DNA of 64,000 bases. Origin: Pseudomonadota bacterium (GTDB lineage: Bacteria; Desulfobacterota; Desulfovibrionia; Desulfovibrionales; Desulfovibrionaceae). Location of the stretch: contig JAHIUW010000023.1 of the NCBI GenBank assembly GCA_018816865.1, forward strand, positions 1 through 64,000, read 5' to 3'. A model generated the notes under the pieces. That model was not told where the DNA came from, did not search any database, and was given only the letters and a program-made list of their open reading frames with translations. This document shows, in pieces, positions 1-26,894 of this stretch; positions within the stretch are counted from its first letter, which is position 1, and each line of letters opens with the position of its first letter. Position numbers and translations under genes: made by a program.

Positions 1-203
1 CTTCTTCCTCGTGGTCATGACGTTCTCCTGGCTTGAGGTTTCGGTGAAGTTTCGCAACTCCAGCCGTACCCCAACCAAGGGCGGCATGACCACGTTCACT
101 TTTGTGGCCAACTGTCAGGTGATAACCATCTCACTACAGTTGGTCTGCCCCATCGTAAGCCCGCCACCCCTGTTCCCAAGGATTGATCCATCGGCCACGC
201 CCC

Positions 204-1571
204 TCACCCCACCATGCGTTCCAGTTCCGGGCGCACCCGCTCGAACAGGCCCGCCAGCTCCACGCGCTCCAGCCCGGGCTGGTCTCCCTGGGCCTCGGGC
301 CAGATCAGCTGGGCCCGGCCCAGGCCGTCCACACGCAGCCGCAGCTTGAGGACCATGGCCCTGTCCAGCAGTTGGCCGTATTCGTCCGAGCCCAGGGTGG
401 GCAGTTCATCAAAGCCCAACTTCCGCACCTGGCAGGCCTGCCTGCGCAGTACATGCCCGGGCAGCCCGGCCAGGGCCCAATCCCGGATCGCCAATTGCCC
501 CACTAGGTCCCCCTGATCTTTGCCCAGGCGGCGGGGCACAGGCCAGCGCACGGCCTGGGGGTAGACCCTGTTCCAGGCAAATCTCCAGGCCCCGCGCGGA
601 GCAAAGTTCCAGGCCATGCGTGCCCCGGCCTGGTCGTTGTCCACCCCCACCAGGATCAGCTCGGCCCGGGTCAGGATCTCATGGGCCTCCTCATCCGGCG
701 CGTGCGAGGTGGAGCGCGTGGCCATCACCCCCAGGCCCAGGGCCCGCAGCTCCTGGAAGACCAGCATGGCGTCGCGCTCGGTCTCCAGCACCACCCAGTG
801 TCGCACCCGCGCCGGGTCGCCCAGCACCATGTAGCGGGTCTCGCTGCCCGGGATCTCGCGGTACTTGGAGCCCCCCTCATGTTCGGGCTCGTCCTGGCGG
901 ATCTTCAGCTGCACCACCTCCCCGTCAACGAACCAGGGCAGCACCAGCCCCGGCGGCAGGTAGATGCAGCGCTCGCGCCCCTGGTGGTTCTCGGCATAGG
1001 GCAGGCCCCAGCTGGTATAGGGCCGAAAGACCTTGTCCGGGTTCAGGCCCATGCGCAGCTCCCCGGCCGTGGTGCGCAGGATTCCCCAGCGCGTGCGCAG
1101 TTTCTCCAGGGCCTCGGCGTCCTGCTGCAACCGGGCCGCGCAATCCAGGGCAAAGGCCGTGGCCTTGGTCCGCCAGATCCGGGGCGCGAACTCCCTGCGC
1201 CGCGGGGCCCAGGCCTGGGGCGCCGCCCCCTCGATGCCCCGGCGCTGTCCGGGGCTCAGCTTGTGGCCCTGGCCAAAGGCCTTCACGAACAGCCTGAAGC
1301 CCTCGGGGTCGTCCTGGTCCCGGCCCTGGGTCACGTTCCACAGCCCGATCAGGTCCGCGCCCTGGCCGCAGGAATAGCAGTGGCCCCAGTCCCGCTCATA
1401 GTCGTAGCGAAAGGCCCCGCCCGGGGACCGCTCGCTGTGCAGCGGGCAATAGGCCCCCAGGGCCGTGGCCGTGCCGTGGCGTTGGCAGATCGCTTCCCCC
1501 ACGCCGCTCAGGATGTCCTGGGCGATGGCCTTGCGCTCCATGGCCGACAACAGCTCTAGTGCCGCCCCCAT
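204..1571 (-). CDS. Phage/plasmid DNA primase with CHC2 zinc-finger and TOPRIM domains (P4 alpha-like N-terminal module). Track ORF extends to 1598; the ATG at 1571 has a GGAGG RBS.
   Basis: CHC2 zinc-finger motif CPLHSERSPGGAFRY...GHCYSCG; acidic TOPRIM-like stretch LILVGVDNDQAG; a GGAGG lies 6 nt upstream of the internal ATG. Confidence 0.75.
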   Translation of the reverse strand: MGAALELLSAMERKAIAQDILSGVGEAICQRHGTATALGAYCPLHSERSPGGAFRYDYERDWGHCYSCGQGADLIGLWNVTQGRDQDDPEGFRLFVKAFGQGHKLSPGQRRGIEGAAPQAWAPRRREFAPRIWRTKATAFALDCAARLQQDAEALEKLRTRWGILRTTAGELRMGLNPDKVFRPYTSWGLPYAENHQGRERCIYLPPGLVLPWFVDGEVVQLKIRQDEPEHEGGSKYREIPGSETRYMVLGDPARVRHWVVLETERDAMLVFQELRALGLGVMATRSTSHAPDEEAHEILTRAELILVGVDNDQAGARMAWNFAPRGAWRFAWNRVYPQAVRWPVPRRLGKDQGDLVGQLAIRDWALAGLPGHVLRRQACQVRKLGFDELPTLGSDEYGQLLDRAMVLKLRLRVDGLGRAQLIWPEAQGDQPGLERVELAGLFERVRPELERMVG

Positions 1572-1598
1572 CCCCCTACCTCCGGTGTTCTCGGTCAA

Positions 1599-1917
1599 GG
1601 TCGATGAGCGCGGGCGCGCCCGGGCCCCAGACCATGGCCCCAGACCTTTGTGCCCTGTTTCCGTAGACCTTTGTCATGGTGTTTTCCTCGCTATTTCGCA
1701 GGCTTGTTTCCAGGCCCAGACCTTGGAGACCTTTGGCCCGACCCTTCTTCCCTTTTTTCATTTCCCTCTTCTTCTCTCTTTCCTTTCTCATTTCTTTTCA
1801 GAATAAGGTCTAAAAGGTCTAAAAAGAGCAAAGAGGGGAGTTCAACACGCCGGAATCCTGTTCCTTTTTCAGCCAGACCTTGACGCTGCCAAGGTCGATC
1901 CCATCCTCTGCCAGGGT
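1599..1917. promoter_or_regulatory. Iteron-like repeat region between the primase and helicase genes; candidate replication origin or regulatory region of the integrative element.
   Basis: At least seven copies of AGACCTT(T)G or its reverse complement AGGTCT, e.g. agacctttgt twice, agaccttgg, agacctttgg, and aggtctaaaaggtctaaaa; plus a roughly 100-nt CT-rich tract. Confidence 0.5.
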
Positions 1918-3942
1918 CTAGTCCCGGGCCTCGTCGTCCTGGCGCTCGCCCAGGGTCCTGCGCCAGTCCTCCTTCAGGCGCAGGCCGTGATATTCCACGA
2001 TATTCGTGCGCCGCGAGCGGAAGCGGGTCTTCATGTCCGTGCCCCACTTGCGTTGGGACTGGACCATCTTCACGGGGATGGATTTCTCGGTCACGCACCA
2101 GAATTTGAAGCTCTCGTACAGGGCCTTGGACTGCTCGAAATTGTCCGCCGGGTGGTTCACGCAGTTCTCGATCCACTCGCCCACCAGGTCCTGTTCCGCG
2201 GTGTATTCCTCGGTCTCGGCCATGACCCCGGCCGGGGCCGCCAGGTCCTCCTCGCGCAGATAGCGGTGGGCGCAGCGCACCAGATAGGCCAGGATCCCCG
2301 GCCCCTCGGCCCGGTACTTGCGCTCCACGTCCTTCATGTTTCCGGCCTGGTAGATGTGCTTGGCCGGGTCCAGCAGCGAGCGGTCGCGCGTGAACTTGGC
2401 CCGAAACGGGATCAGCCGCAGCCTGCGGTAAAAGGCCGGGTCGTTGCCCTTGCACTCGGGCATGTAGTTGGTGTGCAGCAGGATCTTGGCCGTGTTGTGG
2501 AAGTCCACCAGGTCCGCGAACAGCCCGCGCGCGGACATGGTGTCCCCGCCGGTCAGGCTCTTGATGGTCGAGACGTTGAACTTGGAGCCTTGCTCGGCCT
2601 CGGAGAAGATGGCCAGCCGCAGGCCCATCAGCTTCATCAGCTCCGGGTCCGGGCCCCCGCCCTTGCGCATCTCGGTCAACAGCGACACGGGCACGGTCTC
2701 GGCCATGTCGCCCATGACCCAGGCAATGGTCTCGCACCACGAGCTCTTGCCGTTGTCGTGGGTCGGGCCATAGGCCGCCCAGAGCTGCTTGTGGCTCAAA
2801 AGCCCCGTGACCATGTAGCCCAGCACCCGGTCCAGGTAGTCCACTAGGTCCGGGTCGTAGCACATCATGCGCCACAGGCTCTCCTCAAAAAACGGGGCCT
2901 CCAGGTGCGGGCCCAGGTACTCAATGGGCGAGGCTTGGCGGATGTACTGCTCGGGTCGGCCCGGGTGCAGACGCATGGTCTCCAGGTCGATCACCCCGTT
3001 GGCGCAGGCCAGCAGGGTGGGGTGGCGGTCCCAGATCTCGCTGGTCACCCCCAGGGTCCCGCGCCCGGCCACGGCGGTCTGCAGGATCTTGCGCACCACG
3101 GGCAGGCGGCGCAGGTCGTCGGCTCGCGAGCTGTAGGGTTTCACCGCGGCCACAAGGTCCTTGTGCTCGGGGCTGCCGGGCTTGAGCCCGTCCCTGATCC
3201 GCTCCTGGATGCCCTTGCGCCGGCGGATGGCCTCGCGCTCAAAGGGCAGGGCCAGATCCATGACTTGGCGCTGGGCGTCGCGGTACTCGTCGGGTCGCCA
3301 GCGGATCCCGTCAAAGATCATCCAGTGGTCGCTCTTCTGGCCGTCGGCCTTCTTGGTCACGTCCAGCTCGCAGCAGATCCGGTCCCGGACCTTGGCCATG
3401 TACAGTTCGGCCAGGCCCAGGTCGCTGCGGTTGATGGCCGCCTGCAGCTCCTTGGCCGAGGGCGCCCAGTTCTCTTTGCCTGGGGCATCCTGCTGCTTGT
3501 TCTTCTTTTTGTCCTTATACCCCTGACCTGTGTCCGCGCCCCGGCCTGTGCCCGTGGGAGTGCCCTCACGCCCCTGACCTGTGTCCGTGCCCCGGCCTGT
3601 GCCCGTGGGAGTGTCCTCACGCCCCTGACCTGTGTCCGCGCCCCGGCCTGTGCCCGTGGGAGTGTCCAGACCGTCTTGGTCCTTGCCCGGAACACGGCCC
3701 CCTTGCTTGCCCTTCTTTCTGTCTCCGCGCTCCTTGTCTTGGCCAGTGTCCAGGGCCAGCATGGCCCGGCGCTCGTTCTCCACCTCGCCCAGGATCTCGG
3801 CCCGCAGCTCCTCGTCGCGCCACGCGCAAAGGTCAAACTCCCCCTTGCCCGAAACACAGCCCCGAGCGTCAAAGGCGTTTGGTCCCCTGGGCGCGTTGGT
3901 TACGTTGGACGCGTTGGTATGATCCTTTGAGGATTCAGGCAT
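1918..3942 (-). CDS. Phage/plasmid primase C-terminal D5_N/P4-family NTPase (helicase-like) protein. Probable start is the ATG at 3942, with an AGGGA RBS.
   Basis: Walker A GPTHDNGKSS. Conserved D5/P4 primase C-terminal region (VDYLDRVLGYMVTG...FNVSTIKSLTGGDTMSARGLF). N-terminal low-complexity repeat region. Confidence 0.8.
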   Translation of the reverse strand: MPESSKDHTNASNVTNAPRGPNAFDARGCVSGKGEFDLCAWRDEELRAEILGEVENERRAMLALDTGQDKERGDRKKGKQGGRVPGKDQDGLDTPTGTGRGADTGQGREDTPTGTGRGTDTGQGREGTPTGTGRGADTGQGYKDKKKNKQQDAPGKENWAPSAKELQAAINRSDLGLAELYMAKVRDRICCELDVTKKADGQKSDHWMIFDGIRWRPDEYRDAQRQVMDLALPFEREAIRRRKGIQERIRDGLKPGSPEHKDLVAAVKPYSSRADDLRRLPVVRKILQTAVAGRGTLGVTSEIWDRHPTLLACANGVIDLETMRLHPGRPEQYIRQASPIEYLGPHLEAPFFEESLWRMMCYDPDLVDYLDRVLGYMVTGLLSHKQLWAAYGPTHDNGKSSWCETIAWVMGDMAETVPVSLLTEMRKGGGPDPELMKLMGLRLAIFSEAEQGSKFNVSTIKSLTGGDTMSARGLFADLVDFHNTAKILLHTNYMPECKGNDPAFYRRLRLIPFRAKFTRDRSLLDPAKHIYQAGNMKDVERKYRAEGPGILAYLVRCAHRYLREEDLAAPAGVMAETEEYTAEQDLVGEWIENCVNHPADNFEQSKALYESFKFWCVTEKSIPVKMVQSQRKWGTDMKTRFRSRRTNIVEYHGLRLKEDWRRTLGERQDDEARD
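3520..3668. repeat. Near-perfect 3x51-bp in-frame tandem repeat inside the helicase gene, encoding (TGTGRGADTGQGREDTP)x3.
   Basis: Direct read: the unit cccctgacctgtgtccgcgccccggcctgtgcccgtgggagtg(c/t)cctcacg is repeated at 3520, 3571 and 3622. Confidence 0.9.
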
Positions 3943-4470
3943 CCCAGGCTCCCTTGCCGTTGAGGGTGACGCCGTCATAATTTGCTTGGCCGTCTGCCAT
4001 GCCATGAAAAATAGAGGTGATGGAGGTAACACGATCAGGCAGAAGAGTAGTCAGATTGGCCCGCCAGCTCGCGCGGTTCCATCTTTCCATTCCAAAATTG
4101 AAATTGATCCCGCACGCACTTCGTGCTGCTACCGACCCCTGTGGTTTAAGACCATGGGAAGTACCTACGATGTGTGGCCCTGTTGATTTTCGCGGGACTA
4201 GACCTTTCTTTTGTTCTTGTACTGAGGGGGGTGTGGGGTGTGGATGATTTTCACCCGCGTTGAAGCAGTGGTTGCGATCGCTGACGCTCTCGCATCCTTG
4301 AGATTTCGGTAGAGAATATGGGAGTGGCCAATCCGGTGTTGAGGGGACCGGTTTGGGGTCAAAAGTGGGGACAAAACGAGTAGGATATGGGAGCGGTTTA
4401 TGCTTCAGTTGAAGCCGGGAATCCCTTAAGTAAAGGGGCATCGAGGTCTCCCAGCCCGTGTCCTTGCTGC

Positions 4471-4563
4471 CTCTCACGTCGGCAGCAGGGGTTCAAACCC
4501 CCTTGGGGACGCCAACAAAAGCCATGAAAAGTCAGGTAGTTACGCTACCTGGCTTTTCTTCTT
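4471..4563. repeat. Repeat family 1, copy A: a tRNA 3'-half-like segment (T-arm, acceptor 3' strand, discriminator and CCA; 4485-4514) followed by a terminator hairpin (4527-4556). Candidate attR of the upstream element.
   Basis: aggggTTCAAACcccct T-arm, then tggggac-g-cca. No matching acceptor 5' strand or D-arm upstream, so not a full tRNA. Stem gtcaggtag/ctacctggc followed by TTTT. Confidence 0.6.
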
Positions 4564-4629
4564 TTGTGGAAGGGAGAGGTGGGGGCGCGGTGTGCACTCG
4601 TTATGCCGGGAACGGCGCGGTGCCGCGGT

Positions 4630-5667
4630 TCAGGGTGATTCCGGCGTCCACTGGCTGGCGAGTCGTTCGGCTTGGGCTATTTGGTCGGGAGTCATGGACT
4701 GCTCGATATCCTGCGCGATTTGTGCCGCGGCCTCGTTACCTCGCTGGGCTGCCAGCGTGAGCCACATCAAGGCTCGTACGGGGTGGGGGGCGACGCCATT
4801 TCCCTTGGCGTAGGCCAGCCCCAGGTGGAGCTGGCCGGTGGCGTCTCCCTGTTGAGCTGCCCTGTGATACCATAGGGCGGCCATCTCCTTGTCCTGCTCG
4901 ATGCCCTCGCCCAGGTCGTAGGAAACCCCCAGGTTGAATTGGGCCTCGGGACATCCTTGCTGTGCCGCCTCGCGATACCAATGCACGGCCATCTCCTTGT
5001 CCTGCTCCACCCCGTCGCCCAGGTCGTAGGAAACCCCCAGGTTGAGTTGGGCGTCGGTGTCTCCCCCCAGTGCGGCCTTGCGATACCAATGCACGGCTTG
5101 TTCTTTGTCTTGTTCCACGCCTGTGCCGGTGTCGTACATGACCCCCAGGTTGAGTTGGGCGTCGGTGTCTCCCCCCAGTGCGGCCTTGCGATACCAATGC
5201 ACGGCTTGCACCTTGTCCTGCTCTACGCCTTCGCCCAGGGCGTAGGAGACTCCCAGGTTGAATTGGGCGTTAGCATCTCCCTGAACAGCGGCTTCGCGAT
5301 ACCACTGCACAGCCTGGGCCTTGTCCTGCTCCACGCCTTCGCCCAGGTCGTAGGAAACTCCCAAGTTGAATTGGGCGTCGGCGTCTCCTCCCAGTGCGGC
5401 CTTGCGATACCACTGCACGGCTTGTTCTTTGTCTTGTTCCACCCCTGTGCCGGTGTCGTACATGACCCCCAGGTTGAATTGGGCGGTGGCGTTCCCTTGC
5501 TCGGCCGCCTGGCGATAATGTTTTACGGCGAGGGCGTATTCCCCTTGGCTGTAGGCCTTTTTCCCCTCTTGGTAAGGGTTTTGCGTGGTCGCGCAGGACG
5601 TCAGGGCCAGGGCGACAAGGATCAGGGCGCAAGGTGTCAGCAAGGCGGGGATAGTCCTGTTGCGCAT
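4630..5667 (-). CDS. Sel1-repeat (SLR/HcpA-like) lipoprotein with signal peptide and lipobox.
   Basis: About eight tandem AQ(F/L)NLGV(M/S)YxxGxGVEQDxxxAVxWYRKAA units. N-terminal MRNRTIPALLTPCALILVALALTSC; the 36-aa units are also nearly identical at DNA level. Confidence 0.85.
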   Translation of the reverse strand: MRNRTIPALLTPCALILVALALTSCATTQNPYQEGKKAYSQGEYALAVKHYRQAAEQGNATAQFNLGVMYDTGTGVEQDKEQAVQWYRKAALGGDADAQFNLGVSYDLGEGVEQDKAQAVQWYREAAVQGDANAQFNLGVSYALGEGVEQDKVQAVHWYRKAALGGDTDAQLNLGVMYDTGTGVEQDKEQAVHWYRKAALGGDTDAQLNLGVSYDLGDGVEQDKEMAVHWYREAAQQGCPEAQFNLGVSYDLGEGIEQDKEMAALWYHRAAQQGDATGQLHLGLAYAKGNGVAPHPVRALMWLTLAAQRGNEAAAQIAQDIEQSMTPDQIAQAERLASQWTPESP

Positions 5668-6004
5668 GGGGGGGCTCCGTTGGGGCAAACAGTGTTTCGA
5701 GAATGAGGAACTAATAGCAAAGATTTCAGAATGTTTCGAGGAGGATTGGCCTGCCCCGTGCAATGTGTGCTCCGGGGAGGGGCAATGTGCGGGTGTGGCA
5801 GGGTGGGGGTTCCAACGCTGTCAGCGTATAAGTCTTCCACGTTTGGGCAGCTCAACATGCTGCGATATTTGAGGATCTTTTGTTGGTCCGCAGGGGGGCT
5901 GATTTTGCCTTGCCATTTTTCCTCGTGCGTATATAGCCTCCGGGGGTATGATCTGGGGCTGCGTTCTGCCAAGCCCCTTCTCGTACGGGAAATACTGCAT
6001 AAGG

Positions 6005-7552
6005 ATGGTGCCGACAATGAGTGAAGAGACTGAACACAAGCTGCAAACACGCCATCTCTGCATGGACGATTACGAAGCCCTGCGCGGTATCTACAGGCGG
6101 GTCTACAAGGGGGTCGACACCCCGTGGACGCGGGAGCAGATCGCCCTGCTGATCAGCATCTTCCCCGAAGGCCAGGTGTGCATCGAGGACAATGGAGAGC
6201 CGGTGGCCATCGCCTTGTCCATGGTCATCGACTTTAGCCTGTTCGGCGACCAGCACACCTATAACCAGATCATTGGCAACGGCACCTTCAAGTCCCATGA
6301 CCCGGAAGGGGATTACCTCTATGGGATTGAGGTCTTCGTGGACCCGGAATACCGGGGCATGCGCCTGGGGCGTCGGATGTATGATGCCCGCAAGGAGATC
6401 GCCGAAAATCTCAATCTCAAGGGCATCCTGCTGGGCGGACGCATCCCCGGCTACCACAAGGTCTCAAGCGAGATGACGCCCCAGGAGTATATCCTCAAGG
6501 TCAAAAGTCGCGAGATCTACGACTCGGTGCTCACCTTCCAGCTTTCCAACGATTTCCATGTCCGCAACCTGCTCGATGATTACTGGCCGGGCGACCACCT
6601 CTCCCGCGGCAATGCCGTGCTCCTTGAATGGATCAACATCTACTACCAGAAGAAGACTCGACTGGTGGGGCGGACCAAGTCCATCGCTCGCCTCGGCGTG
6701 GTCCAATGGGAGATGCGCCGCTTCGACTCCTTTGACGACTTCATGCAGCAGGTGGAGTTCTTTGTGGACACGGTCAGTGCCTACAAGGCGGACATCATCC
6801 TCTTTCCGGAACTGCTCAACGCTCCGCTGATCCGCATGTACGAGGGCATGAGCCCGTCCGATGCCATGCGCCATTTGGCGGAGCACACCGCTGATATGCG
6901 CCAGGCCATGACGGACATGGCCCTGAGCTACAACATCAACATCGTGACCGGGAGCGTGCCGCAAGTTCAGGAAGACGGCACCCTACACAACGTCAGTTTC
7001 CTGTGCCGCCGCGACGGGACCTGGGACAGCCAGACCAAGCTGCACATCACTCCGGAAGAAGAATCTCACTGGGGTTTCACGGGTGGCCATGATCTGAAGG
7101 TCTTTGACACGGATGTCGGCAAGGTGGGCATCCTCATCTGCTACGATGTGGAGTTCCCGGAACTGGCGCGTTTGCAGACCATGAAGGGCATGAAGATGTT
7201 GTTGGTCCCCTTTTGGACCGACACCAAGACAGGCTACCTGCGGGTTCGGCGTTGCGCCCAGGCCCGGGCCATCGAAAACGAGTGCTTTGTGGCCATCTCC
7301 GGCAGCGTTGGCAACATCCCCAAGGTGGAGACCATGGGAATCCAGTATTCCCAATCCGCCATCTTCACGCCCTCGGACTTCCCCTTCCCCCATGACGCCA
7401 TCGCATCGGAGGTGACACCGGGCATTGAGACAACGCTGATTACCGATGTTGACCTCGACCTGCTCAAGGAGTTGCGCTCCCAGGGCAGCGTGCGCAACGT
7501 CACCAGCCGCAGGACCGACCTCTACGAACTGCGCTGGATCGGGGGCAAATAG
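6005..7552 (+). CDS. GNAT N-acetyltransferase fused to a carbon-nitrogen hydrolase (nitrilase superfamily). Start is 6005 or 6017.
   Basis: N-terminal acetyl-CoA-binding-like region (VFVDPEYRGMRLGRRMY). C-terminal region carries Glu (ILFPEL), Lys and Cys (ILICYDVEFPE) candidates for the nitrilase-superfamily triad. Confidence 0.8.
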   Translation: MVPTMSEETEHKLQTRHLCMDDYEALRGIYRRVYKGVDTPWTREQIALLISIFPEGQVCIEDNGEPVAIALSMVIDFSLFGDQHTYNQIIGNGTFKSHDPEGDYLYGIEVFVDPEYRGMRLGRRMYDARKEIAENLNLKGILLGGRIPGYHKVSSEMTPQEYILKVKSREIYDSVLTFQLSNDFHVRNLLDDYWPGDHLSRGNAVLLEWINIYYQKKTRLVGRTKSIARLGVVQWEMRRFDSFDDFMQQVEFFVDTVSAYKADIILFPELLNAPLIRMYEGMSPSDAMRHLAEHTADMRQAMTDMALSYNINIVTGSVPQVQEDGTLHNVSFLCRRDGTWDSQTKLHITPEEESHWGFTGGHDLKVFDTDVGKVGILICYDVEFPELARLQTMKGMKMLLVPFWTDTKTGYLRVRRCAQARAIENECFVAISGSVGNIPKVETMGIQYSQSAIFTPSDFPFPHDAIASEVTPGIETTLITDVDLDLLKELRSQGSVRNVTSRRTDLYELRWIGGK

Positions 7553-7580
7553 TCGCCAAGGGCCCTCCAGAGGGGCAGCC

Positions 7581-7670
7581 CTCCACGTCCGGCAGGGATT
7601 CAAACCCCCTTTAGGACGCCAGATACAATCACTGAAAAGCCAGAGAGTTACGCTCTCTGGCTTTTCTTAT
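7581..7670. repeat. Repeat family 1, copy B: tRNA 3'-half-like segment plus terminator hairpin.
   Basis: cagggattcaaaccccctttaggacgcca, then aaaagccagagagttacgctctctggcttttctt. About 85% identical to copy A. Confidence 0.6.
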
Positions 7671-7885
7671 TTCAAATTTTTCAGAAACGAAGGACCAGTC
7701 CGCGATCGTGGGGCACCAGACTTTCCATTCACTCCCCATTCGCATAGAGAGGTCCATGCCCATGGACAAGCCGCGACGCCCCCAGGTGGGTTTGGCCCTC
7801 GGTCCTGGCCCTGGTTCCTGGCCGAGCATCCTGCGAGAGTCTCAAATCAATGCAATCCCCGGTTCGAATCTGGAGAGTCACCAAG

Positions 7886-9804
7886 TGAAGATCGTGAACG
7901 TTTTTGGAATGTCCTTAGCGTTGCTCCTCGTGTGCGGGGTGTTTTCTCCGCGGTCTGCTGCCTGGGCGCGGGATACCAGCCAGCCCAAGCCTGAACTCTA
8001 TCAGGCCATTGATCTGGGCGATCTTGCCCGGGCGCGGGTCGCCATCCAGAGCGCCGACGTGAATGCCATCTATGACCGGGATACAATGCTCTGCTGGGCG
8101 CTGCGAAACGAGAACCCGGAGATCACGAAGCTGCTGCTTCAGTCGCCCAGGGTGGACGTCAACAAGCGGGGCATTGGCTATGACGCCTACGGTGATTGGG
8201 AACGCACACCCTTGATCCTTGCCGCACACATGGGCCAGGCCGAGATGGTGGGCCTTTTGCTGCAGCGGGGCGCCAAAGTGAACGCCAGGGACCGCACGGA
8301 CAGCACACCGGAGGCGCGGGGGAACACCGCGCTGCTCAAGGCCGCGCAGAGAGATCACACGGAGGTGATCCGGGTGCTGCTCACCCAGGGGGCGGGCATT
8401 ACAGTCGATGCGCAGACCAAGGATGGCATGACGCCGCTGTGGTTCGTTGCGGAATATGAAAACCTTGAGGCGGTGCAGCTCCTGCTCGCCCACGGCGCAA
8501 AAATCAATCATCCCAACGTCGTGGGCCAGTCCCTGCTTGTGGGAACGTTTCTGCACAAAAAGTACGACGTCTTGGAGTTCCTTGTCGCCCAGGGCGCAGA
8601 CATCAATATGGTGGCAAATAGCGGGCTCACGCCGCTGATGGAGGCCGTCACCGAGCTCGGCGGTAAGAATGCAAAAACGGTCCTCAGGTACATTGAAAAA
8701 TTCATCACCTTCAAGCCCAAGCTGGACCTGGAGCAGATCAAGTCGAACGGTGGCGGCTTTAGTGCCCTGCATCTGGCCGCGCGCTTCGGGTTTGTGGATG
8801 CAGGCAAACTGCTGCTGGACAATGGCGCCAGCATCGACATCAAAGATCTGGCCACGGGCGGCACGCCCTTGCATTCCGCCGCAAGCGCCAACCAGGTCGA
8901 CTTCGCCAGGTTCCTGATCCAGCGCAAGGCCAACCTCGAGATTTTCGACAAAAGCGGCTCGACCCCGCTGATGGTGGCCGTCTATCAGGCTGACGCGGAC
9001 ATGGTGGAGGTCCTGGCGCAGGCCGGAGCGGCAATCAACACCAAATCACCCGTCAATATCCTTGTGACGCCCCTGGTGTATGCCGCCTCGAATCCCGATC
9101 CCTCCAAGCACAAGGACAACCTCTCCATCATCAAAATCCTCGTGGACAACAAGGGCGACATCAACTTCCAGTCCGCCAATGGCAGAACGGCGCTCATGGC
9201 CGCTGCCGCGTGCTCTGACCAAGCGAATGGATACGAGAAAGGGGCCTTGCTGCTCAACCACGGTGCGGACCCCGATGTCGTGAACGACAAGGGAGAGACG
9301 GCCCTGATGCTTGCTGCGGGCGCAGGGAATGAAAAACTCGTTAAGCTCCTCGTGGATAAGGGCGCCGACGTTACAAAAAAGAACGGCGCCGATGAAACGG
9401 TGATGAGCTATGCCAACCGATCCGGCAACAAGGGCAGTACGAGGTTGCTGGAATCCAAAGGCGTCGTGCCTGAAGCCCCCATTGTCAGAAAGAGCGTCAT
9501 TGTCGACGCACTGATCGGAACCTGGAAGGGCTTTCAGGATGGGCTTCCCCAGGCCTTGTACACCGTGGTCCTGAACAAGGACGGCAGCTTTGACTTCACT
9601 TCAAGGTTCACGCCCGAGGCCCTGAAGCAGTTCCCCAAGGGCGCAGTGAATCCGATCATTGCCGCCCAGAAGGGGACGTATACGTTCAACAATGATATCA
9701 TGATCTGGAATCTTGTCGGTGCCCCTCCCACGTCCATGAAGTGGAAGCTGGAGAACGGCGTGCTGGTCATCGACAACAAAATCAGACTGAAAAAGACCAA
9801 GTAA
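7886..9804 (+). CDS. Secreted ankyrin-repeat protein with a C-terminal beta-rich, lipocalin-like tail. Probable GTG start at 7886; the track ORF begins at 7708.
   Basis: Signal peptide VKIVNVFGMSLALLLVCGVFSPRSAAWA. At least eight ankyrin units (TPLxxAAxxGxxExVxLLLxxGAxVN). GGAGAG RBS 8 nt upstream of the GTG. Confidence 0.8.
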
Positions 9805-10029
9805 CCCCAGCAGGGGGCGCGCCAATCGTCCAGAGGCAGGAGAGACCGCACCCCCGCGGGAGCGAACGCCGCGGCCCTTTCAGCAGATGAAAGGCCCCGG
9901 CGAGGGGGCTGGGTGAGCGACCCTTGCCTCTTCCCGAGATGCGTGGCAGTGGGCGGACAGACAGCGTTGATTTCCCGCTCTCTCCAGGGACTGGAGGAGA
10001 TGCGCTTGTGAACAATTCGTAGGACCCAG

Positions 10030-11082
10030 GTGACAATGCCCAAGACCAAAGACTTTTTTTTCAATGAGCACACCAGGCACGGCCTCAAGGTCGGGCTGGC
10101 GAGTGTCTTGGCGTACGTCGCGTCCGGTCTGCTTGGGTTGCCCTATGCGTATTGGGCCGTCATCACCACGGTCATCGTCATGCAGATGCATGTGGCGGAC
10201 TCCATCCAGATGTGTCTGTATCGGTTCACCGGGACGGCCATCGGTGCGGCCATGGGCATCGCCATGATCCTGATCTTTCCGCCCACACCCCTGTTCACAC
10301 TGCTCGGGATCTTTGTCGGGACAAGTGTTTGCGCCTATCTGACGCGGTACAACACGCGCTTCCGCATGGCGGCCATTACCGTGGCCATCGTCTATCTGAC
10401 CAGCCTTGGCGACGCGCATCGCATTCAGTTCACGCTGTTTCGGGTGGCGGAAATAGGCATGGGCGTGCTGTGCGCTTTCTTTGTTTCGGTGGTCGTGTGG
10501 CCCCAAAGGGTCGCCGGAGCCTTGCGGGAAAGGCTGCGAGGTCAGTTTGTCGAACTCGCGGAATTGGCCGCACTGCTCATGGACAACTTTCTCTCTCTGC
10601 AAAAAAAGACCGACCCTAAGCTTTTCGACGATCTCGCGAGGGAGAACGAGAAGAACAGGGAAATGTTCCATAAGGTCTTCGTCACGGAGAGGCGGTTGTT
10701 CCGGGACGACGTGGGGCTGCTCTCCCTGCAGGTGAGCGCGTTCAGTTCCGTGCTGGAGAGGCTGCGGGCCATGCTCATCCTGCTGAATGAAGCGGAGGGC
10801 GAGGGCTTCGAGATCATTATGGCCCCGGAGCTGGGAGAGCTGACGCAGGCGACCGCCGCGGCACTGCGGGACCTGGGGGCGGGACTCACGCATGACTGTA
10901 GCCGCCTGGAGCGCGCCATCAGCGCCATTGAGCCCCGGTTCGTCGAGCTGCGCCGGCAAGGGGTGACGCAGCGCTTTGATGCCCAGCGCCTCTTCCAGGT
11001 GCTTGGGATCATCAATTCGGCGCAACACCTGGGGGACTATGTCCTCGAAAAGCTCAGGCGCGAGGACGCTCCCCATAGCTGA
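10030..11082 (+). CDS. FUSC/ArAE-family (fusaric acid resistance-like, aromatic acid exporter) membrane protein.
   Basis: N-terminal multi-TM region (YAYWAVITTVIVMQ...) followed by a cytoplasmic coiled region; architecture typical of YccS/AaeB-like proteins. Confidence 0.65.
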   Translation: MTMPKTKDFFFNEHTRHGLKVGLASVLAYVASGLLGLPYAYWAVITTVIVMQMHVADSIQMCLYRFTGTAIGAAMGIAMILIFPPTPLFTLLGIFVGTSVCAYLTRYNTRFRMAAITVAIVYLTSLGDAHRIQFTLFRVAEIGMGVLCAFFVSVVVWPQRVAGALRERLRGQFVELAELAALLMDNFLSLQKKTDPKLFDDLARENEKNREMFHKVFVTERRLFRDDVGLLSLQVSAFSSVLERLRAMLILLNEAEGEGFEIIMAPELGELTQATAAALRDLGAGLTHDCSRLERAISAIEPRFVELRRQGVTQRFDAQRLFQVLGIINSAQHLGDYVLEKLRREDAPHS

Positions 11083-11213
11083 GCCTGCCCGGCATCCGAC
11101 TCCCGAAATGGAATCTTCTTTGAAGCTCGTCCTGGAAACGGTTTGGACAGGTAGAAAAGGACGGGCTTGGTAAAGCCGGAGGGCTTCGACCTGGTTCAGG
11201 GAATAAACAACTT

Positions 11214-11304
11214 TCTCATGTCGCCAGTGGGGGTTAAACCACTCTGGGGCGCCAAATAAAATCATCGGAAAGCCAGGGAGTGACGCTCTCTGGCTTTATT
11301 TTGC
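11214..11304. repeat. Repeat family 1, copy C: the most diverged tRNA 3'-half-like segment plus terminator hairpin.
   Basis: gtgggggttaaaccactctggggcgcca, then ggaaagccagggagtgacgctctctggctttatttt. Confidence 0.55.
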
Positions 11305-11422
11305 GTTTCCGGAAACGTAGGTCGAGATCGGGAGGCTTGCTTGGAGAGAATCCCCAGGTCGGGGCGTTTTCCAGGGAGAATGCAGGGACCTTCTCTCCGA
11401 CTGCCTGTCGTAGTGCAAAGGA

Positions 11423-11446
11423 GAGGCCCCGCTGGGGCAGGGCCTC
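11423..11446. terminator. Repeat family 2 GC-rich hairpin (GAGGCCCCGC-TGGG-GCAGGGCCTC) with a conserved TGCAAAGGA 5' flank. Likely terminator of the minus-strand operon ending at 11645.
   Basis: 10-bp inverted repeat. A second copy with 90%-identical flanks sits at 16575-16598. Confidence 0.6.
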
Positions 11447-11644
11447 GGTGGAATCAGGAGTAAAAAGGAGGGGCACTACATCAGGGCCGCACGGCTCCTG
11501 TCTTCCAGGGCCTCTCCTTTGCAACACACCGCCGTCTGCCACGACCTGTCGCAATTCCTGTCGTTATTCGACGGTCCTGGATCGTCCCGCCATCCGAAGT
11601 CAGAAACTCAGACTATAGCCCGGACAGTCACGTCCACCGGGGCC

Positions 11645-12070
11645 TCAGCACTCTTTGGAAGCAGAGCGGCAGGCATTGGTAAGCCTGTTCTCAATATACT
11701 GATAAAACTCGTCATCGAACTCGTAGAGATCGAAACACTTGGCGTCTTCGCCCAACAGGCCTTCGGGGACCTCGTCTCCACGCTGGTCCGGGTCGTCCAC
11801 GAGTTCGTTATAAAAACAGACCGAGAGCCATCGGTCAGCAGGGTCGTCATCGATAATGTCCACCATGGCGAACAGGCTCCGCTTTTGCTGGTTGGCATGA
11901 GAGGCGCGCAACGAATAGGTGATGCCCGGGCGGGCGATAAAAGTGAGGTTTACGTCACTGAGTCCCTCAAGGTGCTCCATGAAGCGAAGGAAGCATCGCT
12001 TGGTCCGATTCGGGTCTTTCGACCAGGATTCAAGGAATAATGTCAGTTCCTCGGTGCAGGTGGCATCCAT
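11645..12070 (-). CDS. Acidic hypothetical protein, last gene of the Cys-rich operon.
   Basis: Intact 141-aa ORF in a lower-GC stretch. The opposite-strand ORF 11519-12040 is less plausible. No recognisable motif. Confidence 0.4.
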   Translation of the reverse strand: MDATCTEELTLFLESWSKDPNRTKRCFLRFMEHLEGLSDVNLTFIARPGITYSLRASHANQQKRSLFAMVDIIDDDPADRWLSVCFYNELVDDPDQRGDEVPEGLLGEDAKCFDLYEFDDEFYQYIENRLTNACRSASKEC

Positions 12071-12124
12071 TGTTTCGGTTCTCCTCGCTTGTTGATTTGC
12101 CTATGTAGTCCACGACTCCAGCCA

Positions 12125-12622
12125 TCAGATATGGGGGATGTTACGGACAAAATCCTCCAGGAATATTTTCAGGTCATCCACCTTTTGGCTGCTGATGGTC
12201 GGGACGTCGGTGGCCAGGGCTTGCACCTTGTCCAGGGGAACGTTGATCGCCTTGTGCACCGTATAGGATTCCACGTCCTCGCCTTCCGGGACTCGGCCGC
12301 AGCCGCCGATGATGCCGATGAATTCATCATTCGCAAAGATGGGGGTACAGATTTTGAGCATTCCCGCGTCGCACTGCTCGAGGATCGTTTTCCCTGTGGA
12401 CCGGGCCTGTTTGGCCATGTGCTGATGCGCTACGGAACAGATCGCCTGGATTCCCTCAGGGTGAGATTTGATCTCGGCGCACAAGGGGTTGATGAAGTTC
12501 TTGAAGCCCGTAAAGGTCATCCCCTTGGCGTCATAGGCGCATGCGTTGACTCCCCAGTTGTTGTGCAGGTTCTTTTCCAGGTCGGCCCATTGATTCTTGG
12601 AAAGCAGGTCAGTCATTTCCAT
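12125..12622 (-). CDS. Cys/His-containing hypothetical protein, possibly ligand-binding (PocR-like?). Family not recognised with confidence.
   Basis: 165-aa ORF 45 nt downstream of the CGGC-like gene. Conserved-looking C...C/H pattern (CAEIKSHPEGIQAICSVAHQH, IGIIGGCG). Confidence 0.45.
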   Translation of the reverse strand: MEMTDLLSKNQWADLEKNLHNNWGVNACAYDAKGMTFTGFKNFINPLCAEIKSHPEGIQAICSVAHQHMAKQARSTGKTILEQCDAGMLKICTPIFANDEFIGIIGGCGRVPEGEDVESYTVHKAINVPLDKVQALATDVPTISSQKVDDLKIFLEDFVRNIPHI

Positions 12623-12664
12623 GGTGATCTCCTTGTTCTCAGATGTTCTGGTGTGGATGAGGCG

Positions 12665-13039
12665 TTAGATTTCAGGGGAGTATCCTTCGGGCAGATGAGC
12701 CGTGCCCTTGATGCAGGGAATGCCGGTGGCTTCGCGCATCTGGGAAAGCAATTGTTCGTGCTTTTCGCAAAAACCATCGCCTTCCAAAACCCACTTTCCA
12801 TCGACCTTGTTTGCAAAAAGACAAGTGGCGACGTGAATAACCTCAGCGCCTTTGGCCTTGAGGATCTTGGCCAGATTGACCACATTGTCCCCAGGGCAGC
12901 GGCAGGTGAAAATGCCTGCAAGCGTTGCCGCATCATAGGACTTGAAGCCCTGCGTTCTTTGCTCCAGGCAGGTGATACAGCCCGTTAACGGGCAGGTAGT
13001 TTCGTTTTTTTCGCAGCGGATGATTCCAATTTTTGTCAT
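12665..13039 (-). CDS. CGGC-domain-like Cys-rich putative metal-binding protein. Start at MTKIGIIRCE.
   Basis: The start MTKIGIIRCEKNETTCPLTGCITC resembles the CGGC-domain family; several Cys pairs (CRCPGD, CLFANK, CEKHE). Confidence 0.45.
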   Translation of the reverse strand: MTKIGIIRCEKNETTCPLTGCITCLEQRTQGFKSYDAATLAGIFTCRCPGDNVVNLAKILKAKGAEVIHVATCLFANKVDGKWVLEGDGFCEKHEQLLSQMREATGIPCIKGTAHLPEGYSPEI

Positions 13040-13070
13040 GCTGTCTACCTGTGTTGAATAGAATGTGTTG

Positions 13071-13517
13071 TTATTTTTCCTTTTCCATACGCAAGGTGCG
13101 TTTGTAGTAATCCCCCACGGCCTCTTGGAGGGCATTTGCCGCTAACGAGGCGCAATGCGCGTCATCGTCGGGAAGGCCTCCCAGGCGATGGAGGATGACC
13201 TTTCCGGTGATGGCGGAGAGGGCGTCGCTGTGTTTGTTCAGGGCGAGTTCCGCAGCCATGGAGCCACAGATCAGACTGGAGCCGCAGCCGGTTGTTTGGA
13301 ACCCGGACTGACAGACCATGTCGTCTTCGATATTCAAGAAAATGGTTATGTTGTCGCCACACTCTCCGGTCATGGAGCCCCGACAGTTGGTCTGTGGCGG
13401 TTCCCCCATGTTGGGAGGATTGCGCCAGCGGTCATAGGCCTTCTGGCCGTAGAGCGCGCTGGTTTCTTTGTCCATGCGATCTTGCAGGTCGTTGACGAAA
13501 TCATTGATGTCAGCCAT
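13071..13517 (-). CDS. NifU/IscU-like Fe-S cluster scaffold protein.
   Basis: The three scaffold Cys motifs GECGD, GCGSSLI and HCASLA at canonical spacing. Confidence 0.8.
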   Translation of the reverse strand: MADINDFVNDLQDRMDKETSALYGQKAYDRWRNPPNMGEPPQTNCRGSMTGECGDNITIFLNIEDDMVCQSGFQTTGCGSSLICGSMAAELALNKHSDALSAITGKVILHRLGGLPDDDAHCASLAANALQEAVGDYYKRTLRMEKEK

Positions 13518-13609
13518 GGCCCGTTCGTCTCCTTTTGATGGAATATATAGCGATCACCAAGCGTGGGCCCGGTGATCGCCGTAGGGTGGGCAGTACTGAC
13601 CGGGAACAC

Positions 13610-13954
13610 CTATTCGGCGTCCCTTTGATCCAGTTCGGCCATGCGCCGTTGGATGGCCTTTAGTTCTGATTCAAGAATCCTTGCTTGGTTTTGTAGGGCC
13701 TGTTGCTCGTCTTGCGGGCTGGGCGTGAATGCGGCCCCGGCAAGGGGAAGGCCCTGCCAGCCTCCGCAGCGGCCACCACGACCTCCCCGGAAGCCAAAGC
13801 CATAACGCAGGCGCATGCCGTTTGGCCCGTAGCCTGCCCCGTAGCCTGCGCCATACCCCCATGGGGTCGGGGCGTTGACGCCGGTGCACCCACCTAGGCC
13901 CCGGCCCGAGGCCGGGCCGATTCCCATAGGACCCGTTCCGTCTCTGCGTGGCAT
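13610..13954 (-). CDS. DUF5320-family protein. Start at MPRRDGTGPMGIGP.
   Basis: The N-terminus MPRRDGTGPMGIGPASGRGLGGCTG matches the DUF5320 signature; Gly/Tyr-rich middle; C-terminal coiled coil. Confidence 0.6.
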   Translation of the reverse strand: MPRRDGTGPMGIGPASGRGLGGCTGVNAPTPWGYGAGYGAGYGPNGMRLRYGFGFRGGRGGRCGGWQGLPLAGAAFTPSPQDEQQALQNQARILESELKAIQRRMAELDQRDAE

Positions 13955-13974
13955 GATTGCCTCCTTTGCTAATG

Positions 13975-14667
13975 TTACGCCCGCACCAGTGGCGCGTGGC
14001 AGTTCGAACATCTTCGTTGCGAGCAGGGGATGCCAGGCACAGCCTCAACCCTTTGTCCGCAGTGTGGGCATCGGCATGAGACCTGTTTCCGGTTCAAGGA
14101 CGATGCCTCCGGCGGTGTGGCGGGTTCCTCGCGCACATTGCCCTCGCCTGGTTCCATGAGTTGACCGCGTCTGTGCGCATGCCTGCCCTGACCCGACCAG
14201 GACTGCCCCCCTCGTCCGAATCTTCCGGCCCAGAGGAGGTTGCCAGCGGTTGGTTGAGAGCCGCGGGTCATGGAAAGCCTCCCGGCGTATCCTGGAACCA
14301 TGAATTGCTGATTGTCGAGTTGGTCGGCCCGCCATGCTGTGATGAGTTCTTCCAGGTCACCCATGAGGAAAGAGTGAACCGTGATGCCTTGCGCGGCAAT
14401 GACGCCGGACAGCTGCCGCGAGATGGCTCCGCACACCAGGACATCCACTCGCCATCTCTGCAACGCGGCGGTGGTGGCGTATGGTGCTTCGGTCGGCATG
14501 CGCACCACGCGGAGTGGTGTTTTGCAACAAGGGTCCTTCGCCACAAGGACGGCCTGCGACGCGACATCAAAGACCGGCGCTATCCGCTCTTCCCAGACGC
14601 TGAAAGCTGCGTTCATGGTGGGGCCTGCTCCTTCTTGCATTGAAAGAGCAGTATCCATGCCAAGCAA
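13975..14667 (-). CDS. NifX/NafY/NifB-type dinitrogenase FeMo-cofactor-binding domain protein (MTH1175-like) with a C-terminal zinc-ribbon extension. Start uncertain.
   Basis: RIAPVFDVASQAVLV...VDVLVCGAISRQLSGVIAAQGITVH matches the Nif_FeMo_cofactor fold. C-terminal CRCPHCG...CSNCH. Confidence 0.65.
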   Translation of the reverse strand: MLGMDTALSMQEGAGPTMNAAFSVWEERIAPVFDVASQAVLVAKDPCCKTPLRVVRMPTEAPYATTAALQRWRVDVLVCGAISRQLSGVIAAQGITVHSFLMGDLEELITAWRADQLDNQQFMVPGYAGRLSMTRGSQPTAGNLLWAGRFGRGGQSWSGQGRHAHRRGQLMEPGEGNVREEPATPPEASSLNRKQVSCRCPHCGQRVEAVPGIPCSQRRCSNCHAPLVRA

Positions 14668-14744
14668 CAGCCCTGCGCCGTTTGTTTCTATTTGGCTGTC
14701 TTTATTGAACTAAAATTGATTTGCAGGAGGGGAATGTCGTTGAT

Positions 14745-14786
14745 GGGTCGCAATGCTGCGACCTTTCGGAGTGAAAGGGTCGCAGT
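14745..14786. promoter_or_regulatory. Array of three alternating GGTCGCA/TGCGACC half-sites between the sigma-54 activator gene and the NifX-like operon. Candidate UAS/operator, with a weak sigma-54 -24/-12-like element overlapping on the minus strand.
   Basis: GGTCGCAatgcTGCGACCtttcggagtgaaagGGTCGCA. On the minus strand aGGtcgcagcaTTGCg has correct GG-N10-GC spacing about 65 nt upstream of the ORF start. Confidence 0.4.
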
Positions 14787-14790
14787 TCTG

Positions 14791-16182: not shown

Positions 16183-16574
16183 AGCCGAAATCCTTCACTC
16201 CTGTTTCATCTGGCTCTGGCTCAGGCAAGGCTTACGCGGTTTCATCACCTTCTAGGGTCTTCAGGGTGCTCTCAAGCGTTTCACCGGCAGGATTGAAAAT
16301 ATACTTCTCCTGAAAGATTGATGCGTCAAATAGGTGTGTTGATGCAGAGTTGACAATCAACCACCGAAATCCGCCCGAGTCAATTTATCGAAAAAAGATT
16401 CGAAGGTAATCCTTAAGTTGATTGGCTGGATTGGAAGAGCGGTTGGCGAGTGTCCCTTGTCTGATTCGCAGTTCTGGTGCCGTGCGGTTCCGGCACCAGG
16501 GTGGGGGACTTTTGCTGAAAGGACATCTTCCCCTCATTCTTGACTGGTCGAGCGTTGCAAAGAAGAGGCCCCGC

Positions 16575-16598
16575 TGGGGCGGGGCCTCGACGGAGAAC
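16575..16598. terminator. Repeat family 2 hairpin (GAGGCCCCGC-TGGG-GCGGGGCCTC) downstream of modC, with the conserved TGCAAAGAAGA flank.
   Basis: Perfect 10-bp inverted repeat; the minus-strand reading is followed by TTCTTTGCA. Confidence 0.6.
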
Positions 16599-16625
16599 CA
16601 GAAGTGAAGAGGATGGAAAGGGTCG

Positions 16626-17971: not shown

Positions 17972-17999
17972 CGATTTACCCTCATCTCTTCATCCTCAT

Positions 18000-26292: not shown

Positions 26293-26894
26293 GGCTCTGG
26301 CTTGCCACATGCTGTTTCCCCCTCGCCTGTGTCGAAGATGATTGCGTAGAAAAAATAAGTATCAGTAATAACTATCTAAGGTATCATACTGGTCAATAGT
26401 TTGAATTGCAAAAGGTTTGGGCCTTGCTCAAACTCATGCACCTGAATCAAGGGGCTGCATTCTTGAATTCTCAGCAGTGACAAGCTTGTTGATGATGAGC
26501 TGGGCCAAACTTGGTGGTGGGAAGAATTGCCGGGAGAAGACAGGGGGGCAGGCCAAAAACAATGCCGGGGAGCGGACTCTCTGGCTTTTTCCATGACATC
26601 GGAGGAGATCACAGGATTTGTCGGCGCTGCTGATGGGCAGGTGGTCCTCGGCCCGGTTCTGCTGCAGTTCGTCGCGAGAGGTCCTTGCCCGAACGGGCAG
26701 GTCAGAACAGGAAAAACTCTATTTTTGATTTTAAGAGAGCGTGGATTGTCAGTCTTGAGAACTGAGTGTTTGTATCTTTCACAGCGACTTACGGATTGCA
26801 AAGCATATGAAAAGTGGCTAAATATCAAACCACCTATCATGGACGGGGCTGACTGGATCGCGGGTCATCGTGAACAGTACGAGGGGGGGGCAGC

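Follow-up and report, generated by a model that had tools for sequence, protein, structure and literature searches.

Direct repeats derived from tRNA-Glu(CTC) bound two-gene islets in a Desulfovibrionaceae contig

tRNA-derived repeats and the layout of the locus

We analyzed a 64,000-nucleotide stretch of DNA from a Desulfovibrionaceae bacterium (hereafter the window; contig JAHIUW010000023.1 of assembly GCA_018816865.1), in which an earlier note had described an accessory region at 4630-11082 delimited by attachment (att) repeats. The window begins at one end of a 162.9-kb contig from a metagenome-assembled genome (MAG). From left to right, the locus consists of a P4-type primase element (1-4469), repeat 1, a first islet (islet A), repeat 2, a second islet (islet B) and repeat 3 (Table 1). 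Islet A carries two divergent genes, one for a Sel1-repeat protein and one for a GNAT-nitrilase fusion, and islet B carries a gene for an ankyrin-repeat (Ank) protein followed by one for a FUSC-type membrane protein. All four cargo genes that had been named are present, as judged by Pfam and by reading of the sequence. The cargo had also been called rich in repeat proteins; two such genes exist, but they are only two of the four. The islets measure 3.1 kb and 3.6 kb, each holds just its two cargo genes with no pseudogene debris, and non-coding DNA amounts to ~1 kb over both together. The distance from the P4-family primase gene to repeat 1 is 440 nt, that from the GNAT-nitrilase stop codon to repeat 2 is 25 nt, and that from the end of the FUSC gene to repeat 3 is 130 nt.

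Three direct repeats of ~95 nt delimit the region, as had been proposed, and they proved to be derived from tRNA-Glu. In each, a segment resembling a tRNA end (...GGTTCAAACCCCCTTGGGGACGCCA) is followed by a short spacer rich in A and then by a strong hairpin with a T-run; overall identity among the three is 66-71%. Repeat 1 is identical at 46 of 46 positions to the 3′ end of a tRNA-Glu(CTC) called by ARAGORN at another locus (L075). Repeat 2 contains a 3-mismatch match to a 25-mer of repeat 1, and none of 100 shuffles gave an exact 25-mer plus a 3-mismatch copy, as seen for repeats 1 and 2. When scored with an nhmmer profile built solely from genuine tRNA-Glu 3′ halves, repeat 1 was recovered at E = 6.7e-15 and repeat 2 at E = 1.3e-5, the latter with a 2-3-nt deletion in the alignment. 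Repeat 3 was assigned to the same series because of its full-length likeness to repeats 1 and 2, with which it aligns across ~95 nt, including the common spacer and hairpin. All three repeats start at the same point of the anticodon loop, which is also the boundary of tRNA-Glu fragments in other genomes (CTCTCAC). The direct repeat is a tRNA 3′ part with its boundary in the anticodon loop, perfect in repeat 1 and degenerate in repeat 2. Judged by sequence, the repeats are remnants of att type, left at a hotspot of integration in tRNA-Glu(CTC).

The predicted hairpins are stable in all three copies (repeat 1, -27.6 kcal/mol, z = -7.7; repeat 2, -24.9 kcal/mol, z = -7.2; repeat 3, -20.4 kcal/mol, z = -4.1), and the stem of repeat 2 differs from that of repeat 1 by two compensatory pair changes. 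This stability and these paired changes suggest that selection has preserved the hairpins; their simplest role would be to terminate the GNAT-nitrilase and FUSC genes. The loop in which strand exchange would be expected is altered in repeat 2 (CTC-CAC) and in repeat 3 (TTCTCAT), and because the fragment cores are mutated, the islets are probably fixed fossils and not active cassettes. No fourth copy was found in the window by nhmmer. A weak, hairpin-only match at 26.55 kb (E = 0.001) was rejected as a repeat copy; it lies in AT-rich intergenic DNA (26340-26900), within a local dip in GC content to 0.56-0.58 over 26-28 kb. A T-loop-like motif at 7860-7869 (GGTTCGAATC) was likewise rejected as a tRNA remnant, since it sits in a 5′ leader and ribosome-binding region. 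This leader is conserved with that of a homologue of the Ank gene (L016), where the blastn alignment begins at 7867. An Rfam search of the window returned no meaningful RNA family at the repeats, at either the gathering or the E-value level. The conserved spacer and hairpin pattern had 0 matches in reference genomes, and the hairpin is therefore lineage-specific.

No integrase remnant was detected by tblastn in 4.5-17 kb, and no Phage_integrase domain by Pfam in 1-17 kb; the cognate integrase of the leftmost element may lie past the contig end. ARAGORN called no tRNA in the window. The array also differs from an integron cassette array (IntI, attI, attC) in that it has no integrase and its repeats are tRNA-derived.

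The exact 25-mer of repeat 1 occurs at 61 loci in our reference-genome collection, nearly all of them in Desulfovibrionales. At most of these, ARAGORN calls a tRNA-Glu, mainly with anticodon CTC, whose 3′ end falls exactly at the 25-mer match. About a dozen loci have no ARAGORN tRNA at the 25-mer, and the eight of these with readable upstream sequence (L025, L034, L038, L039, L047, L049, L051, L060) carry a fragment, with tRNA identity beginning in the anticodon loop at CTCTCAC. An integrase gene lies directly 3′ of an intact tRNA-Glu at two loci (L035, L036), and at L038 a tRNA-Glu fragment is flanked by an integrase on both sides. At L047, a Prim-Pol/AAA_25 primase-helicase is encoded just upstream of the tRNA-Glu fragment, a layout that matches the window because a P4-family primase is likewise found upstream of repeat 1. 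In Pseudodesulfovibrio and relatives, an A-rich spacer, a hairpin and a T-run also trail native tRNA-Glu(CTC) genes. Spacer and hairpin are common to the intact tRNA and the fragments inside one MAG in three cases (L035, L025, L051), and the duplicated att block thus spans the anticodon loop through the tRNA terminator. An array resembling that of the window was observed in an unrelated 'delta proteobacterium' MAG (L049, 750-4617), where three tRNA-Glu(CTC) fragments are spaced at 2.2 and 1.5 kb and just two genes, for a transaldolase and a beta-lactamase-family protein, occupy the first interval, with no integrase. By tBLASTn, neither the primases nor the cargo of the window were found near tRNA-Glu loci of other genomes, and the 25-mer of repeat 1 had 0 matches in viral contigs.

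Table 1. Positions of the repeats, genes and blocks in the left part of the window (GC3, G+C content at third codon positions)
Feature	Position	Strand	Details
Primase-like gene, CHC2 zinc finger	204-1571	−	Zn_ribbon_DnaG E = 1.1e-4; GC3 0.90
P4-family primase/helicase (D5_N + DUF5906)	1918-4032	−	PF08706 52.8 bits; TIGR01613; GC3 0.87
Repeat 1	4470-4564	+	tRNA-Glu(CTC) 3′ 45-46 nt to 4514, spacer, terminator hairpin 4526-4558, T-run
Sel1-repeat lipoprotein, 345 aa	4630-5667	−	PF08238; GC3 0.73
GNAT + carbon-nitrogen hydrolase fusion, 511 aa	6017-7552	+	PF00583, PF00795; GC3 0.82
Repeat 2	7578-7672	+	Degenerate tRNA-Glu 3′ fragment to 7621, spacer, terminator hairpin 7634-7666
Periplasmic ankyrin-repeat protein, 639 aa	7885-9804	+	Signal peptide, ~14 ANK repeats, C-terminal lipocalin-like barrel (predicted)
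Half-length FUSC/ArAE-type membrane protein, 348 aa	10036-11082	+	PF04632; GC3 0.80
Repeat 3	11213-11305	+	Most degenerate tRNA-Glu-like fragment to 11254, spacer, terminator hairpin 11269-11297
Second atypical block	11414-16650	genes on −	hyp141, PocR, CGGC, NifU_N, DUF5320, hyp213, sigma-54 PAS regulator

The product of 1918-4032 in the P4-type element scored 185.6 bits against TIGR01613 ('phage/plasmid primase, P4 family'; cut-off 108.7). Within this gene, a 51-nt tandem repeat (3520-3699; 3.5 copies, 86-96% matches) encodes a repeated 17-aa linker rich in Thr, Gly, Arg and Asp. The neighboring gene starts with an ATG at 1571 behind a GGAGG ribosome-binding site, and its exact product is also encoded on contig k141_927785, which stops ~200 nt past the gene. 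GC3 of the element (0.87-0.90) is host-like, and no relatives of its P4-type primase were found in IMG/VR. Like P4-type satellites and integrative islands in tRNA genes, the element has a P4-family primase and ends at a tRNA-derived att fragment. Unlike for those islands, only its right end is visible here, with integrase, att partner and capsid-redirecting genes outside the view of the window.

Composition and extent of the accessory region

A core HdrA-like protein (59.7-61.7 kb) matches Desulfovibrio ferrophilus at 92% and a Desulfocurvus at 88%, and by this protein the host, a sulfate reducer of free-living type, can be placed in the D. ferrophilus/Desulfocurvus clade of the Desulfovibrionaceae. 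Neither D. ferrophilus nor Desulfocurvus had an entry for the GNAT-nitrilase or for the Ank protein among the 120 matches listed for each gene. The four cargo genes have a GC3 of 0.73-0.82, compared with 0.844 ± 0.045 for 33 core open reading frames of the window (Mann-Whitney p = 0.008). A comparison of the composition of 4.6-11.1 kb with the surrounding genome had been suggested as a check on foreign origin; GC3 is indeed below that of the core, but the deviation is mild. Taken with the tRNA fragments, the non-syntenic homologues and the lack of D. ferrophilus or Desulfocurvus entries among the matches listed, the lower GC3 supports the view that the region is accessory, and the att-delimited region was probably acquired horizontally.

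Atypical composition continues beyond repeat 3. No genes of the window have a lower GC3 than the seven at 11.6-16.2 kb (0.60-0.75; p = 1e-7 in comparison with the core). A second pair of direct repeats, at 11414-~11500 and 16556-~16650, brackets 11645-16182; the two copies share a 39-nt core with 90% identity, and a 25-mer that occurs at these two sites only. Both are minus-strand terminators, one after hyp141 and one after modC. The 11414-16650 block probably belongs to the same accessory region as the islets, and given the atypical composition beyond repeat 3 and the second repeat pair, this region therefore extends over ~12 kb. The interval 4630-11082 is its tRNA-fragment-bounded part: the bounds given for it held insofar as repeats flank 4.6-11.1 kb, but the low-GC stretch runs on to ~16.6 kb.

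To the right, a gene at 18923-20050 (+), divergent from modABC (16626-18752, −), encodes a protein with a C-terminal TOBE domain, which we take to resemble the TunR-type tungstate/molybdate-responsive regulator of sulfate reducers. Its N-terminus is weakly similar to tyrosine integrases (19.2-19.6 kb, tblastn E = 0.002), and it was rejected as a mobile-element integrase.

Cargo proteins and their relatives

The Ank gene had been placed at 7886-9804. The gene, its signal peptide and its Ank repeats were confirmed, but not its start: position 7886 is out of frame by one base, and the in-frame start is a GTG at 7885. This start yields a product of 639 aa, in agreement with the JGI gene call (P0121, 100% identity and coverage). 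The N-terminus (MKIVNVFGMSLALLLVCGVFSPRSAAWA, followed by RD) is a Sec-type signal peptide, and the protein scored 231.2 bits against Ank_2 and 224.3 bits against Ank. Its AlphaFold model (predicted local distance difference test score, pLDDT, 92.6) has an N-terminal signal helix, helical repeats at 37-524 comprising ~14 ankyrin repeats, and eight beta strands over 545-637 that form a barrel, in line with the beta-rich C-terminal tail described before. As modeled, the C-terminal domain is a lipocalin-like barrel. The closest known counterparts are bacterial lipocalin-like (calycin) periplasmic domains, such as those of Bacteroides BT_0846 and BACUNI_01346 and of Vibrio ToxS/VtrC; unlike these, the window barrel has no Pfam match, and its sequence identity to them is just 10-19%.

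Full-length relatives of the Ank protein have a near-constant length of ~630-645 aa at identities from 78% down to 44%. The best are metagenome proteins (75-78%) and a protein from a Pseudodesulfovibrio MAG (74%). Named carriers are Pseudodesulfovibrio, Humidesulfovibrio, Maridesulfovibrio ferrireducens, Holophaga foetida, Rhizomicrobium and Campylobacterales, and we take the cultured ones to be free-living sediment or groundwater organisms. In an alignment of 64 sequences, 12 of the 33 invariant columns fall in the last 95 residues, and the barrel is essentially only found fused to this Ank array. In all five other contexts inspected (L013, L014, L016, L148, L150), the surroundings of the Ank homologue differ from those in the window, and in two (L148, L014) it stands among housekeeping genes. 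In each of the genomes checked, the flanks of the Ank gene exceed the gene itself in total GC by 4-7 points. A search of viral contigs with the Ank alignment returned only generic Ank matches and L113; L113 and L016 are one and the same contig, in which the gene lies outside the prophage.

Side observations place the Ank-family gene beside RNA genes at three loci, in two distinct contexts. It lies directly downstream of the 3′ end of a tRNA-Arg(CCT) in L148 (12288-12364), downstream of a tRNA-Arg fragment in L016 (2940-3010), where an integrase and a prophage are also present, and downstream of a tmRNA plus a tRNA-Met in L013 (10179-10864). This adjacency is compatible with repeated delivery of the gene by integrative elements. 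No tRNA-fragment repeats flank the Ank homologues at these three loci.

The Sel1 protein scored 255.6 bits against PF08238 (cut-off 30.7), with seven repeats. Its N-terminus (MRNRTIPALLTPCALILVALALTSC, followed by ATTQ) has a basic n-region, a hydrophobic core and an L-T-S-C lipobox, which bears out its description as a lipobox Sel1-repeat protein. The nearest NCBIfam models (MerG, MotX, AlgK and ExoR, all envelope proteins of free-living bacteria) scored far below their cut-offs. Within this gene, at window positions 4878-5485, we observed a 108-nt (36-aa) unit repeated in tandem (5.6 copies, 80% matches). In a second assembly from this population (L005, 6013-6942; 98.7-99.5% identical) the gene is shorter by exactly one unit, giving 309 instead of 345 aa, and a third assembly breaks inside the repeats. 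Variation in Sel1 repeat number within the population could account for this, as could an assembly artefact.

The FUSC protein scored 132.8 bits against PF04632, covering profile positions 3-303 of 660, and also matched FUSC_2, ArAE_1 and ALMT. It had been called a FUSC-type exporter; the FUSC domain is present, but at 348 aa the protein is a half-size member of the superfamily and does not have the full-length (~650 aa) two-module architecture. Scores against the NCBIfam models AaeB, YccS and MdtO were all far below the cut-offs.

Both domains of the GNAT-nitrilase fusion were recovered by Pfam, as the earlier note had claimed (PF00583, 31.5 bits; PF00795, 110.6 bits, cut-off 23.2), and public assemblies call the gene with the same boundaries (P0001, 100% identical). 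The Glu, Lys and Cys motifs of the nitrilase superfamily (PE, K.H, ICYD) align with the mouse Nit2 structure 2w1v and presumably represent the catalytic residues of CN_hydrolase. The best named relatives are from Desulfomicrobium (88%, Desulfomicrobium norvegicum) and Pseudodesulfovibrio (85-86%). Its five contexts elsewhere (L002, L007, L010, L149 and smaller contigs) differ from each other and from the window. In Desulfomicrobium genomes (L002, L004, L010, L149), a NifU_N gene is always found ~2-3 kb from the GNAT-nitrilase homologue; the window has a NifU_N gene (13071-13517, 53% identical) 5.5 kb from the GNAT-nitrilase gene, past islet B.

The cargo would be ordinary bacterial envelope or periplasmic proteins together with cytoplasmic C-N-bond enzymes. 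As a working guess, we assign them envelope or periplasmic functions and a cytoplasmic amide-bond enzyme activity, acquired piecemeal.

Explanations for the array

We consider it fairly likely that integrated elements have accumulated in tandem at a tRNA-Glu(CTC) gene and that the region makes up the older portion of this array. Going by known integrase behavior, tyrosine-integrase elements of Desulfovibrionales would recombine in the anticodon loop of tRNA-Glu(CTC), each incoming element bringing its own tRNA 3′ half and terminator. Each integration would rebuild the tRNA and displace the earlier 3′ half downstream as a dead fragment, and both the intact tRNA and the newest element's integrase would be located past the contig end. 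Islets A and B would then be compact remnants left after loss of integrase and arm sequences, with the inherited hairpins now terminating the GNAT-nitrilase and FUSC genes, and the cargo would have come from other Desulfovibrionales-like anaerobes. We infer this order of events and route of decay.

Such remnants would resemble cis-mobilizable elements (CIMEs), decayed integrative and conjugative or integrative and mobilizable elements that keep attL and attR and have lost the genes for integration and transfer (Pavlovic 2004 and Bellanger 2011, as cited in PMC5704250). Both islets have att copies on either side (repeats 1 and 2 for islet A, repeats 2 and 3 for islet B) and have lost such genes. 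As in CIMEs and tandem accretion, the units in the window are bounded by direct repeats of the 3′ part of the target gene, have no integrase or transfer genes and lie beside a fuller element. Unlike CIMEs, they are very small, have no pseudogene debris and derive from a parental element type that is unseen here; their att copies have diverged, with mutated cores, and mobilization today is doubtful. The two also differ in taxon, CIMEs being from streptococci and the window from Desulfovibrionaceae. The locus adds a case to a known phenomenon, in which integrative elements accumulate in tandem at a tRNA gene and decay there, and as a whole it is an unexceptional instance of genome plasticity.

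Several observations weigh against this explanation. With the contig ending at window position 1, the intact tRNA-Glu and the integrase are out of view. Repeat 3 is not independently recognizable as tRNA-derived (E = 0.43 on the tRNA-only profile). The hairpin sequence common to all three copies and absent from reference genomes is easier to reconcile with a single lineage-specific source than with the arrival of three unrelated elements. For decayed elements, the islets are also unusually clean, the gap between the GNAT-nitrilase stop and repeat 2 being an example. The GC3 deviation of the cargo is mild, with the GNAT-nitrilase within one standard deviation of the core, and the strongest compositional anomaly (11.6-16.2 kb) lies outside the tRNA-type repeats. 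We discounted the low total GC of the Ank gene as evidence of transfer, as it is a family-wide property in the genomes checked. No close relative with an empty site was found among metagenome contigs searched with ModA as anchor; the best (L082, 64% identity) shows synteny of the tunR-like gene and modABC and has no tRNA-Glu. Finally, a three-way neighborhood link hints that GNAT-nitrilase and Ank may belong together and not to separate islets.

This link leads to the reading, which we hold to be unlikely, that the four proteins form one functional module that processes, binds or exports a nitrogenous organic compound across the envelope and was moved as a unit, the repeats being incidental terminators. 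The GNAT-nitrilase gene directly precedes the Ank gene on the same strand in the window. In Maridesulfovibrio ferrireducens, a 422-aa Amidohydro_1/3 protein is encoded 50 nt after the Ank homologue (L150, 7964-9232), and a 78%-identical amidohydrolase orthologue directly precedes the GNAT-nitrilase homologue in a metagenome contig (L007, 8653-9924). The M. ferrireducens locus also has a separate CN_hydrolase gene and a separate GNAT gene 3-4 kb from Ank. A small ligand would suit the modeled lipocalin-like barrel, and FUSC/ALMT proteins move organic anions. However, each of these neighborhood links is a single example, and the CN_hydrolase of M. ferrireducens is only 24% identical to the window protein. 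Ank, Sel1 or FUSC genes accompany the GNAT-nitrilase in none of its five contexts, and FUSC, Sel1 or a fused GNAT-nitrilase accompany the Ank homologue in none of its five. A tRNA fragment with the standard att boundary moreover separates the GNAT-nitrilase gene from the Ank gene.

It is very unlikely that the locus is an active cassette array, in which modules of tRNA half and terminator are still used by a resident integrase to capture, excise and shuffle cassettes that have no integrase of their own. The compact two-gene units of the window, together with the 2.2-kb and 1.5-kb units of L049 bounded by the same type of fragment, would fit this idea, as would the perfect core of repeat 1, and mobilization in cis of att-flanked decayed elements by a neighboring element has been documented (PMC5704250). 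Yet the altered overlap in repeats 2 and 3 should block strand exchange, the available sequence holds no integrase, the repeats are only 66-71% identical overall, and the hairpin-bearing module occurs in no reference genome. We give a slim chance to the broader notion that Desulfovibrionales keep arrays of 1.5-3.6-kb cassettes without integrases at tRNA-Glu(CTC), as a tRNA-based analogue of integrons. If it were true, the integrases of arriving elements would capture, reorder or export cassettes, each with its own terminator, and one such cassette would spread the periplasmic Ank-lipocalin family.

That the region is an islet of eukaryotic-like proteins for host interaction, as the earlier note had proposed, is highly improbable and found no support. 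On that proposal, a eukaryotic host would be the target of the secreted Sel1 and Ank proteins, as in Legionella, Coxiella or Helicobacter. Both proteins carry export signals, both repeat types are over-represented in host-associated bacteria, and the closest NCBIfam models to the Ank protein describe Dot/Icm Ank effectors of Legionella. The window proteins share their repeat types with the Legionella and Coxiella Dot/Icm Ank effectors and with the Sel1 (SLR) virulence proteins of Helicobacter and Legionella. Against this, the Ank protein fell below the equivalog cut-offs of all nine effector models (31-127 bits against 450-1400), the best score against the Legionella models (AnkY, AnkH, AnkG, AnkX and others) being 126.5 bits for a cut-off of 600, and scores so far below the cut-offs reflect the repeats alone. 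Unlike effectors of a type IV secretion system, the window proteins would leave the cytoplasm by Sec or lipoprotein export, to the periplasm in the case of Ank, and no secretion-system gene is present among the annotated genes at 0.2-20 kb. The length and barrel of the Ank family are conserved, its named carriers span Desulfovibrionales, Holophaga, Rhizomicrobium and Campylobacterales, and its position amid housekeeping genes in two genomes also argues against a role in a host. By reason of this distribution, the signal peptide, the lipocalin-like barrel and the effector-model scores, the cargo does not appear to consist of host-directed effectors.

An exported bacterial ankyrin-repeat protein with a role outside pathogenesis is already known in AnkB of Pseudomonas aeruginosa, an ankyrin-like protein of the periplasm without which the catalase KatB is not fully active (Howell 2000, as cited in PMC12754779). 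The window Ank protein is like AnkB in being such an exported protein. It differs in having no nearby catalase gene, in its much larger size, and in its ~14 repeats and predicted lipocalin-like barrel. Given the role of AnkB, periplasmic Ank proteins need not target hosts.

In conclusion, tRNA-Glu(CTC) is documented here as a recurrent integration hotspot in Desulfovibrionales. If the tandem-array explanation holds, old integrations can leave tidy two-gene islets in which inherited hairpins end the cargo genes. Host association should not be read from an island just because it encodes secreted Ank and Sel1 proteins. The Ank-lipocalin proteins form a small, conserved and uncharacterized periplasmic family that functional studies of sulfate reducers could reasonably take up.

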